Sequence record: PQ330092
DNA length: 64,000 nucleotides
Direction: 5' to 3' (one strand)
Source of the DNA: Escherichia phage JP4
A program made the position numbers and the translations under genes. Under the pieces are notes generated by a model. The model did no database searches, was not told where the DNA came from, and was given only the letters and a program-made list of their open reading frames with translations. This document shows positions 58,529 through 60,439 of the stretch, piece after piece; the stretch's first letter is position 1, and every line of letters begins with the position of its first letter.

Positions 58529-59156
58529 TTAAACACAAGTAGACAGGGGAAGCTCCTAGTGAACAACCTTTATGTACAGGCGAATTGTTAAAATTCAGCC
58601 TGGACAAATGCGATCACTAGGATTCTCCCCAGGCTAAACCCAGTAATCATAGGTAGTCATAAGTAATCATATATAAACATTTATATGAGCACCGTAGAAT
58701 CACAGAATGATTATATATGATTCAGTACTGATTAGTATAGACAAGAATGCTCAAGAATGCACGGGAAGGATTCAGTACTGATATGCCACTAAGTAGGCAG
58801 AGGAAGTCTGCCGTACTTTGTAGTTTCCAAGCTCCTTTTCCATTTTGCAAATTACATCAAATGTAATCAAAAGTAATCACGCAATGATTAGTACTGAATT
58901 ATTACTTTCACCTTAATTACAATTACCCTTTTACCCTTCGGGGTAAAATTCAATTACCCCTTGAGGCTCCAGCAAAAAGTTGGTTAGTACTCCATCCTAA
59001 ATCTCGATCCTAAAAATTTTGGAGTACCTATGAAATAAAAGTTGGATCTTCGAAAGTTGAAATTTACGTTGGGACGTTTATGATTTGTGGGATATAATGA
59101 TGTTTGTAGACGGGTAGTTCTCAAGAATATCAGTACTGAATGGTGAAAGAAAGTTA

Positions 59157-59184
59157 TTGACATTATGATTCAGTACTGTATAAT
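59157..59184 (+). promoter_or_regulatory. orphan sigma70-type promoter in the non-coding region
   Basis: TTGACA-16-TATAAT followed by the shared GTTCTACAT-type start region; no ORF downstream. Confidence 0.5.
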
Positions 59185-59602
59185 GTTCTACATAGAGAGA
59201 TGAGTTGCTGCGAACAATTCATTTACTCTACCTCCTGTCGTGAGACAGTACAGAAAAGATAGTTCCTCCTGTGGTGGTACATCTTTTTGAACCTCATATG
59301 AAAATTGTAATAACAGTACTGATATTAACAGAATGGTGTCAGTACTGATTTTAATCTAAAGCATTATGCCACCAGCACAAGCTGGTGGATTCCCTCTAAC
59401 AGTATTCAGTACTACATGATAGTCTTCATCCTCCTAGGGTAACATAGTGAGGGCTATGATGGCAGTACTGAATACTCCCTTTCAAAAGATAGATCTATGG
59501 TATAGTACTGACGGATTTTGGGTGTAGTTACCCTGGATGGATTTTGGACGTAGATATGTCTAGCCCTCCAGAAGTCTGGAAGTAAAGATGGCTATCCATC
59601 TA

Positions 59603-59669
59603 GACGGCTAAACGGCTAGATTTCTGGATGGCTGGATGGCTAGACGTTTGGACGGCTAAACGGCTAGAT
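59603..59669. repeat. short direct repeats (iteron-like)
   Basis: gacggctaaacggctagat at 59603-59621 and 59651-59669, embedded in reiterated ggatgg / ggctag / gtctggaagta units. Confidence 0.55.
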
Positions 59670-60317
59670 GGTTACACGTCTGGAAGTATAGACGGCTAAA
59701 TCAAAATTTTATTTTGTTTTTCCAATAGTTCCCCTACCGCGTGGGGATAGTTTCCCCGCAGTATCTGTAGTTAGATTTTTCTGAATCTGGAATCATTATC
59801 TTATAAACTGGGGGCAATGTCAACGACCTGGCCGGATATTTTTAAAAATTTTTTCAGTACTGAATTTTGGGCGTAACTATGCACCCGGTGGGCTTGAGTC
59901 TTTCTCGACTTGATGGAACTATTATACAGTACTGGAAAAATAAAGCAATACCCTGGATGAAAAAAGTTTTAATTAATTTGCTTGCCATCCTGGGCCGGAC
60001 TATGGTACTATATTTCAGTACTGAGAAAGTGCGTTTACCTGCTAGGGTGCGGGAGTGTATCCTTTTTTTATATCTTGAATTTTGGGCGTAATTCCGCACC
60101 CTCTGGGGTTTCCGCTTTCTCGCGTCTATGTAGTAATTATACGCTTTTTCAGGATCAAGTCAATACCTAAAAACAAAATAATTGAAAATAATTTAACGCG
60201 TTTAAACGGCCTGTAAAGCCCTGGAATGATTGGAATGGTGCAAATGTATAGCTTATGTGTATTAATGCGTTAGAATGCGTCTGAGGCCGTTTTATGGGGT
60301 GTAGTAGTGATTTGGTT

Positions 60318-60408
60318 GATTCAGTACTGAATAATAGTACTCCTATATAGAAAGATAGTTCCCCTGGATTGATTCAGTACTGAATAATAGTACTCCTATA
60401 TAGAAAGA
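60318..60408. repeat. tandem direct repeat, 2 x 38 bp
   Basis: gattcagtactgaataatagtactcctatatagaaaga at 60318-60355 and 60371-60408. Confidence 0.65.
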
Positions 60409-60439
60409 AAACTATTTTAAAAGTATTTGTAGAAAGTAC

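Follow-up and report, generated by a model that had tools for sequence, protein, structure and literature searches.

A conserved gene-free leader at the probable left genome end of an Asteriusvirus jumbo coliphage

Several phages with direct terminal repeats (DTRs) or fixed packaging cuts can be compared with the locus described here, a non-coding interval (positions 58529–60522) of Escherichia phage JP4 that very probably contains the left end of the virion DNA and the start of a ~21-kb DTR, opened by a gene-free leader of 1.73 kb (58792–60522). The interval lies in a 64,000-nt stretch of record PQ330092 (hereafter the window), whose positions are used as coordinates throughout. The terminal redundancy of Bacillus phage SPO1 is a host-takeover module, in which a long DTR carries small early genes behind strong host-type promoters. 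PA5oct, a Pseudomonas phage distantly related to JP4, likewise has a long DTR, whose small early genes each follow a strong promoter of the host type. In RNA sequencing, this 39-kb DTR was seen to be transcribed early and to give rise to two abundant non-coding RNAs (ncRNAs) (PMC7318152). JP4 shares this gene arrangement; however, the PA5oct ncRNAs lie 8–22 kb into the DTR, neither SPO1 nor PA5oct has detectable sequence similarity to the JP4 leader, and leader anatomy has been described for neither.

The left end of T7 resembles the JP4 locus in that a gene-free leader stands at the first-listed end of a DTR genome, short-period direct-repeat arrays lie by the repeat boundary, and a leftward host promoter (A0) and several strong rightward ones (A1–A3) precede gene 0.3. 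However, the T7 repeat measures 160 bp, compared with ~21 kb here, its leader 0.9 kb, compared with 1.73 kb, and its CCTAAAG arrays, with a period of 13 bp, lie just outside the repeat, whereas an 8-bp array lies 741 bp inside it here; the terminases are unrelated. Entry of T7 DNA is driven by transcription, which is only conjectured for JP4. The left terminal repeat of T5, including the injection stop signal, is likewise a long DTR with early genes (~10 kb, compared with ~21 kb), and has large, highly conserved untranslated regions in which direct and inverted repeats and palindromes abound; one of these regions spans a repeat boundary. Unlike JP4, T5 has paired DnaA boxes and GTGCAAATCCGACA repeats, and its main repeat region adjoins the boundary on the inner (right) side of the left repeat, not the outer (left) end. 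Clustered paired TTWTNCACA boxes in inverted repeats, as at the T5-type injection stop, do not occur in 58529–60522. The analogy to a DnaA-box/T5 injection stop was rejected, as the interval has no such box and the 8-bp array bears no relation to the DRD repeats of T5 (GTGCAAATCCGACA). Lastly, the pac hexamers of P1, and pacL and pacR around pacC of SPP1, flank the cleavage point, resembling JP4 in that same-direction short repeats with ~10-bp phasing lie on both sides of a fixed cut. P1 and SPP1 differ in packaging headfuls from pac into permuted genomes, whereas the JP4 genome appears to have fixed ends and a long exact repeat.

A sequence search with positions 58400–60600 returned 43 phage records, 31 of them covering at least 80% of the query, with identities of 87–98% in the top 30 matches listed. 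The matches listed, mostly classified as Asteriusvirus, include PBECO4, 121Q, G17, phAPEC6 and fEgEco12, together with a few 'Salmonella phage SD-' records. Judged by this similarity, JP4 is an Asteriusvirus jumbo coliphage of the PBECO4/121Q/G17 group.

The relatives place a genome end at a single nucleotide of the interval. Specifically, base 1 of fEgEco12, ELP-22, CRJP21 and vB_Ec-M-J aligns to position 58792, the last base of G17, reverse-complemented, aligns to the same nucleotide, and 186 of the next 190 aligned columns are invariant. The DTR of fEgEco12 was determined to be 20,993 bp by PhageTerm and confirmed with restriction digests (PMC13070987), and G17 was found from coverage to have a terminal redundancy of ~20 kb (PMC6563267). 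A DTR of 20,668 bp has been reported for Sharanji, and the vB_Ec-M-J record is annotated with one of 21,525 bp; across relatives, reported DTRs span 20.0–21.5 kb. Several relatives are deposited as linear records of 366–384 kb, in which the match lies ~18–22 kb from one end, and each record deposited with both DTR copies matches in two places. The position was checked independently against the 8-bp array, which is found at nt 737 of records that start at the end, exactly as calculated from the window (59528 − 58792 + 1). By sequence homology, the five records sharing the end nucleotide, taken with the mapped fEgEco12 ends, mark a DTR genome end, and a physical left end and DTR start at 58792, which would make this nucleotide the first base of virion DNA, is very probably the best explanation of the interval. 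A packaging site or genome terminus, one of several roles listed in the original prediction, is thereby strongly supported, as the mapped left end and DTR start of relatives falls at 58792. The cut lies between 58791 and 58792, with GATATGCCACTA on its left (58791 ends the sequence GCCACTA) and AGTAGGCAGAGG, also given as AGTAGGCAGAGGAAGTCTGCC, on its right. The end itself has already been mapped in close relatives, and a DTR boundary with an early leader is a known kind of feature; as far as we found, the leader anatomy and the cross-family 8-bp array are undescribed in the searchable literature, and published accounts of Asteriusvirus, CBB, phAPEC6 and Sharanji describe DTRs but not this leader.

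Conservation was judged on an alignment of the interval from ten genomes, of which PBECO4, 121Q, UE-S1, A4, G17, fEgEco12, ph0011 and EJP2 are named in this report. Each open reading frame (ORF) of at least 30 amino acids is frameshifted or stopped in several relatives, in agreement with the earlier view that the interval is non-coding, and most depositors left it unannotated. The gap is slightly longer than first given (58529–60522 instead of 58529–60439), because the first downstream gene in fact begins with the ATG at 60523 (120 amino acids), annotated so in PBECO4, 121Q, UE-S1 and A4. The upstream ATG of the ORF list, at 60466, sits within the TATAATG of this gene's own promoter, and its frame, corresponding to a 139-residue form annotated in some records (for example fEgEco12 g01 and G17_00053), crosses a hairpin of the 5′ untranslated region (UTR) and is broken by UTR indels in 121Q, UE-S1 and A4. 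The interval had also been called GC-richer; its GC content of 38.1% does exceed the 34.5% of the window, but this is just the 88th percentile of same-size windows and equals that of the downstream genes (38.4%). The GC shift applies to all sequence right of 58792 and is not specific to the gap. A scan of the window for tRNA and tmRNA genes found none. A covariance-model search, suggested with the original prediction, gave no Rfam 15 match at the gathering threshold in the whole window, and the sole match in the interval at E values up to 1 was a chance hit to SNORD60 (E = 0.69), below the gathering threshold.

The cut is bracketed by two modules of ~24 bp each, built on the heptamer GTAATCA, which are 83% identical and lie 210 bp apart, one on each side. 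The upstream module (58642–58671, plus strand) consists of three 10-bp-phased units, AGTAATCATA, GGTAGTCATA and AGTAATCATA (period 10 and 3.0 copies in the tandem-repeat program TRF); it ends ~120 bp left of the cut and is invariant in nine of ten relatives. The downstream module (58856–58879, plus strand), ATCAAATGTAATCAAAAGTAATCA, contains 2.4 units of 10 bp and lies 64–87 bp inside the end; vB_Ec-M-J has one additional 10-bp unit here. An inverted ATGATTA comes after each module, and four of the eight GTAATCA copies in the window flank the cut. The modules thus form phased short repeats around a cleavage point, as at pac-like sites, and because such repeats surround the cleavage sites of other phages, we propose that they are docking sites for the terminase small subunit.

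The 263 bp of unique sequence left of the cut (58529–58791) are non-coding and form the most variable part of the interval, with indels around a conserved core. They hold an imperfect inverted repeat (58540–58562/58614–58636) and two copies (58723 and 58773) of the palindrome CAGTACTG. To the right of the cut, an inverted repeat, GGCAGA-GGAAG-TCTGCC (58796–58812), lies 5–21 nt inside the end and is invariant in eight of ten relatives; Serratia phage BF likewise has a GAAGTC..GC core at its start, and the DNA fold of 58760–58830 has a z-score of −2.3. Further inside, the earlier report of UUCG-loop hairpins at 58931–58946 reduces to a single hairpin with a UUCG-type loop, TACCC-TTCG-GGGTA (58932–58945, plus strand), which is conserved in most relatives and duplicated in ph0011.

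The leader precedes the first early gene (fEgEco12 g01) and contains a series of rightward promoter-like sites. The first, TTGGGA-18-TATAAT (59069–59098, plus strand), matches the consensus at 10 of 12 positions and is conserved in nine of ten relatives. The second, TTGACA-16-TATAAT (59157–59184, plus strand), is a full consensus σ70 promoter, as originally predicted; it matches at 12 of 12 positions and its core is invariant in ten relatives (TTGAC and CAGTACTGTATAATG in all ten genomes). A CAGTACTG palindrome fills its spacer as far as the −10 element, and the promoter shares 91% identity with that of the first early gene over the −10 element and the initially transcribed nucleotides. This promoter had been described as an orphan, which it probably is not. 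Downstream lies a predicted structured RNA of ~165 nt, here called T1 (59190–59356, plus strand), delimited by fold, promoter and a terminator-like hairpin. T1 has a minimum free energy of −48.7 kcal/mol (z = −4.54), and none of 200 shuffled sequences folds equally well or better. The predicted fold comprises, in order, a 5′ hairpin of 15 bp, an invariant CCUCCU, a GNRA-loop hairpin (CUGUC-GUGA-GACAG), a third hairpin and a terminal hairpin of 14 bp; the last is formed by two CAGUACUG palindromes (59314–59347) and followed by a U-rich tail, AUUUUAAUCU, in the manner of a terminator. RNAalifold finds six pairs with compensatory changes, mainly in the 5′ hairpin. T1 is a plausible small-RNA candidate by these predictions, and the earlier suggestion of a locus for ncRNAs, which is likewise a matter of prediction, gains plausibility from the conserved promoter, the stable fold and the terminator-like hairpin.

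A search of IMG/VR with an invariant 18-mer of T1, CCTCCTGTCGTGAGACAG, returned 121Q and four contigs that cannot be aligned to T1 elsewhere, and added no covariation. In these four contigs (726–743, 9292–9309, 7837–7854 and 1191–1208), the 18-mer lies after an apparent coding region and before a promoter-like TTGACA, so that it may be a portable hairpin element.

Another rightward promoter-like site, TTGCCA-18-TACTAT with an upstream TG (59982–60011, plus strand), lies ahead of a candidate for a short conserved transcript, CAGUACUGAGAAAGUGC...GCUAGGGUGCGGGAGUGUAUCCUUUUUUU, with a weak terminator-like hairpin and a U-run at its end. The whole element (59982–60072) is near-invariant in the ten relatives and 66–71% identical in Muenster, RaK2 and K64-1. 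The rightmost of these sites is the early promoter of the first DTR gene, AAAGTAC-TTGCAC-16-TATAAT (60440–60467, within an element extending to 60522, plus strand), whose coding sequence starts at 60523 and whose 5′ UTR contains the hairpin AGCGGGAA-CAC-TTCCCGCT (60481–60499). From 60440 on, TTGCAA/TTGCAC-16-TATAAT cassettes precede each gene, with repeats at 60900, 61580, 62141, 62943 and 63198, so the DTR carries small early genes behind host-type promoters.

The interval contains 12 CAGTACTG palindromes, bearing out the earlier remark that such palindromes are numerous (Poisson p = 1e-7 for enrichment over a uniform spread). CAGTACTG occurs 52 times in the window against 0.65 expected from base composition (~80-fold), and AGTACT 233 times against 22 expected (~10-fold), sites within coding regions included. 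In at least seven promoter-like sites (14626, 59171, 61935 and 53695; on the minus strand 59927, 62072 and 63611), CAGTACTG occupies the spacer as far as the −10 element, which is, by its placement in the sequence, a repressor-operator position. The palindrome is frequent within genes too, and so may serve a further purpose throughout the genome. The core AGTACT presumably resembles the centre of the SlmA-binding site, GTGAGTACTCAC.

Leftward promoter-like sites are also present. One, TTGACA-17-GATAAT (59795–59823, minus strand), matches the consensus at 11 of 12 positions. It belongs to a leftward family (59823, 59948, 60163, 62093 and 63632) in which TTGAC, CAGTACTG and TATAAT are followed, after ~30 nt, by a small GCACCC...GGGC hairpin. 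Copy 1 of the leftward unit, defined by a four-copy alignment (59860–59948, minus strand), has a weak −35 element, TTGCTT, then CAGTACTG and TATAAT (59921–59948), and ~30 nt past the promoter a small GCACCC-GGT-GGGC hairpin element and GAATTTTGGGCGTAA. Klebsiella phage Muenster has a collinear counterpart of this copy, in which the stem has changed in a compensatory manner from ACCC/GGGT to ACGC/GCGT, and a 43-nt match (90.7%) occurs in the CBB terminal repeat. Copy 2 (60075–60163, minus strand) has the promoter TTGACT-16-TATAAT at 60136–60163, and its element is also found in Serratia phage BF. Two more units, each a leftward promoter with GCACCCGGTGGG (62040–62105 and 63580–63645, minus strand), lie between early genes in the DTR and, judged by position, would give transcripts antisense to early genes.

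The most conserved block of the leader (60165–60300) contains long invariant runs in all ten genomes, including the divergent EJP2, and comprises an A/T-rich stretch, TTTAACGCGTTTAAAC and a long-range inverted repeat, AAACGGCC/GGCCGTTT. It is followed by a tandem duplication (60316–60408, plus strand), each copy of which contains ATTCAGTACTGAAT. The original prediction had this element as 2 × 38 bp at 60318–60408; the repeat is real, but consists of two identical 40-nt cores (60316–60355 and 60369–60408) with a 53-bp period. Two copies are present in the window, PBECO4, UE-S1 and fEgEco12, and one in ph0011, A4, G17 and EJP2.

The Chi octamer is present in both directions in a palindrome, CCACCAGC-ACAA-GCTGGTGG (59369–59388), with CCACCAGC at 59369 and GCTGGTGG at 59381, 577 bp inside the left end; eight of ten relatives retain the palindrome. 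RecBCD must approach the octamer from its 3′ side, and the exact E. coli octamer in the CCACCAGC arm is oriented such that it would act on enzyme coming in from the left end. The 4-nt centre is ACAA in some relatives and its complement, TTGT, in others with the arms unchanged, which suggests an inversion of the palindrome centre. In the window as a whole, there are three copies of GCTGGTGG and four of CCACCAGC, compared with ~0.2 expected for each, and the octamers outside the palindrome match the local gene strand in orientation. A separate strand bias in the window concerns AGGAGG, depleted on the plus strand (1 against 7 expected), and CCTCCT, enriched (16 against 5).

Between the Chi palindrome and the leftward units lies an array with an 8-bp period (59533–59700, plus strand), detected by repeat search and TRF, in which ~21 units of CTRGAYGG (CTAGACGG, CTAAACGG, CTGGATGG and variants) extend from 741 to 908 bp inside the end, G-rich on the plus strand. 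These are the iteron-like direct repeats earlier placed at 59535–59700. All ten aligned genomes have the array, and relatives gain or lose units in 8-bp steps. The same unit array (GGCTAGAC, GGCTGGAT, GGCTAAAC) is found in unrelated phages, usually less than 1 kb from the record or contig end: at nt 40–114 (about 115) and also at the other end of the T7-like PGT2, ~70 nt from the right end of the T7-like KPV811, at nt 10–843 of Vibrio T5-like phages, in a non-coding gap near the A1/A2 genes of Aeromonas T5-like phages (AhSzq-1, 3965–4200), and at nt 38–805 of Eneladusvirus jumbo phages of Erwinia, Serratia and Yersinia; it also occurs in GAP32. Only some of the T5-like Aeromonas and Vibrio phages carry it, and T5 itself has different repeats. 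About two-thirds of the listed non-Asteriusvirus matches lie within 1 kb of a record end, and six of eight IMG/VR matches lie within 300 bp of a contig end; a literature search for the array sequence returned unrelated primer matches only.

That this GGCTRGAY array is a shared cis-element of DTR genome ends in phages of Gammaproteobacteria, acquired or maintained independently by T7-like, T5-like and Rak2-like jumbo phages for its engagement of a conserved host process at the end of the DNA, is a tentative proposal that we consider doubtful at present. Two options for its role are conjecture. It could provide Rho-dependent, rut-like insulation of outward transcription; the outward array transcript would be C-rich and G-poor, and three leftward promoter-like sites point into the array. 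Alternatively, it could signal a pause while DNA enters the cell or is packaged. A Chi-like RecBCD decoy (GCTGGATGG compared with GCTGGTGG) was set aside, as the array unit has an extra base, and is also disfavoured by orientation, the G-rich strand being inactive for the nearest end here and in PGT2, the Erwinia, Serratia and Yersinia jumbo phages and KPV811. Of the two, it is the true Chi palindrome that fits RecBCD.

The layout of the leader recurs in other genera. Klebsiella phage Muenster (Alcyoneusvirus), for which PhageTerm gives a DTR of 20,030 bp, opens with a 1.3-kb gene-free leader full of CAGTACTG, which is collinear with window positions 59840–60150, including the compensatory hairpin-stem change. 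Serratia phage BF (Eneladusvirus) has a 1.78-kb leader at its start, with the array at 700–800 and a CGCACCCTCTGGGGT element. Because the layout recurs in Muenster and BF, the leader is, by sequence comparison, old and conserved within this clade of jumbo phages. In place of the 8-bp array of the coliphage leader, that of Muenster has a cluster of GATAATGATTCTCATTT repeats (780–910, 1075–1100 and 1300–1320), which we take to fit the Fur-box consensus GATAATGATAATCATTATC at ~14 of 19 positions.

Three other explanations of the interval were weighed. Short hypothetical ORFs annotated by some depositors (ELP22_0001, fEgEco12 g614 and UES1_225) could speak for a decayed coding region, or for a gene broken by sequencing errors, but every ORF is hit by 1–2-bp indels or stops in several independent genomes, and conservation peaks in promoter, hairpin and repeat elements rather than in any reading frame. 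The ten independently sequenced genomes agree, and with ORF integrity lost across them we rejected this explanation as hardly conceivable. A replication origin, also among the roles originally predicted, would have the array as iterons and the A/T-rich block as unwinding element, or a promoter priming through an R-loop as at T4 oriF/oriG. It would account for the dense promoter-like sites and repeats, for the invariant A/T-rich block (60165–60200) and for a switch in the sign of GC skew at ~58.5–59 kb, where the genes on both sides lie on the plus strand. However, the skew break coincides with the junction of two gene sets, the paralog array on the left and the DTR early genes, and no initiator gene is recognisable among the neighbouring genes. 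DnaA boxes number nine in the window, below the 15 expected, and none lies in the interval. The array period is 8 bp, whereas typical iterons measure 17–22 bp, and T7-like and T5-like phages have the array at their ends too; the T7 origin is located elsewhere in its genome, and T5 origins are reported elsewhere in that genome. The interval therefore lacks the boxes, repeat period and neighbouring initiator gene of an iteron/DnaA-type origin, the A/T-rich block being present, and an origin, for which positive support was not found, is improbable.

The third explanation, that the interval serves chiefly to encode regulatory ncRNAs and lies at the terminus only incidentally, is a genuine possibility, if somewhat short of an even chance. 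It draws on the conserved consensus promoter and strong T1 fold (z = −4.54) with some compensatory pairs, on the four copies of the leftward promoter unit, on the abundant ncRNAs expressed from the PA5oct DTR, and on three plus-strand CCUCCU motifs in the interval, compared with ~0.15 expected (scaled from the window), which could pair with Shine–Dalgarno sequences. However, T1 belongs to no Rfam family and is known from sequence prediction, its covariation rests on two divergent genomes, and RNA genes would leave the precise conserved end, the GTAATCA modules and the 8-bp array unexplained; moreover, an ncRNA function is compatible with a terminus and does not replace it. Several points weigh against a terminus at 58792 and the functions attached to it. 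The end in JP4 is placed by homology, the right DTR boundary lies outside the window, and the right DTR boundary of fEgEco12 shares no cut-site motif with the left end, a candidate motif having been rejected because just a generic AGTACTGA and one inverted GTAAT-like 9-mer are common to both. A4 and EJP2 diverge around the cut, so that their ends may differ, and some depositors may have copied earlier record starts instead of measuring the end. The transcript candidate at 60016–60072 folds no better than shuffled sequence (z = −0.74), and we infer that the terminase and a repressor bind, that the RNAs are expressed and Chi acts, and which end enters the cell first.

With the left end of the virion DNA at 58792, the locus may work as follows. 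The linear chromosome would begin here, and in replicating DNA unique sequence would run into the ~21-kb DTR. The terminase small subunit would dock on the two GTAATCA modules, and the packaging enzyme would cut between 58791 and 58792, making 58792 base 1 of the virion. The 1.73-kb leader would probably be among the first DNA to enter the cell, where its inward host σ70 promoters would start immediate-early transcription and yield at least one structured RNA of ~165 nt, while the leftward promoter-like sites would yield short outward or antisense transcripts. A dimeric repressor bound to CAGTACTG in the spacers would block RNA polymerase and may shut the promoters off. At the Chi palindrome, RecBCD that had come in from the left end would switch from degrading the DNA to promoting recombination among the repeat copies, and the 8-bp array would serve as a conserved end-proximal element.

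Directly left of the interval, at least nine tandem paralogous plus-strand ORFs of ~60 amino acids (56606–58528) share the motifs HKEFY, PL, FNxCI and QYYxILxLIxRY; their GC skew is ~−0.2 and their AT skew strongly positive, unlike other plus-strand genes. Further left, 12 consecutive minus-strand ORFs (39382–53652) encode 245–460 amino acids, mostly 386–412. The four compared share the N-terminus MLPF(A/P)RM(V/I)KYGN and GxNxxGQLG-type repeats, and one pair is 29% identical (E = 2e-40), which points to a large array of paralogs resembling RCC1/β-propeller proteins. Three CCACCAGC Chi octamers (46814, 47072 and 47327) lie within this array. A Pfam search of the flanking genes found DUF7249 only, which is uninformative.

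Many of the listed Asteriusvirus records are 347–356 kb long, about one terminal-repeat length short of end-mapped ones, and have the junction at internal coordinates. With the end fixed at this nucleotide, such genomes can be oriented and compared correctly, and spurious ORF calls at the junction removed. The cut site and its flanking modules are obvious packaging-signal candidates for engineering and rebooting 350-kb phages. The leader gathers the elements likeliest to be active in the first minutes of infection, namely host promoters, a candidate RNA, operator-like palindromes and a Chi pair. That a single 8-bp array recurs at genome ends in three phage groups unrelated to one another offers a concrete starting point for testing which features the DNA ends of terminal-repeat phages require. 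If the array is indeed such a shared element, then, together with the operator-like CAGTACTG and the anti-Shine–Dalgarno-like T1, it would make the leader a previously undescribed immediate-early control module.

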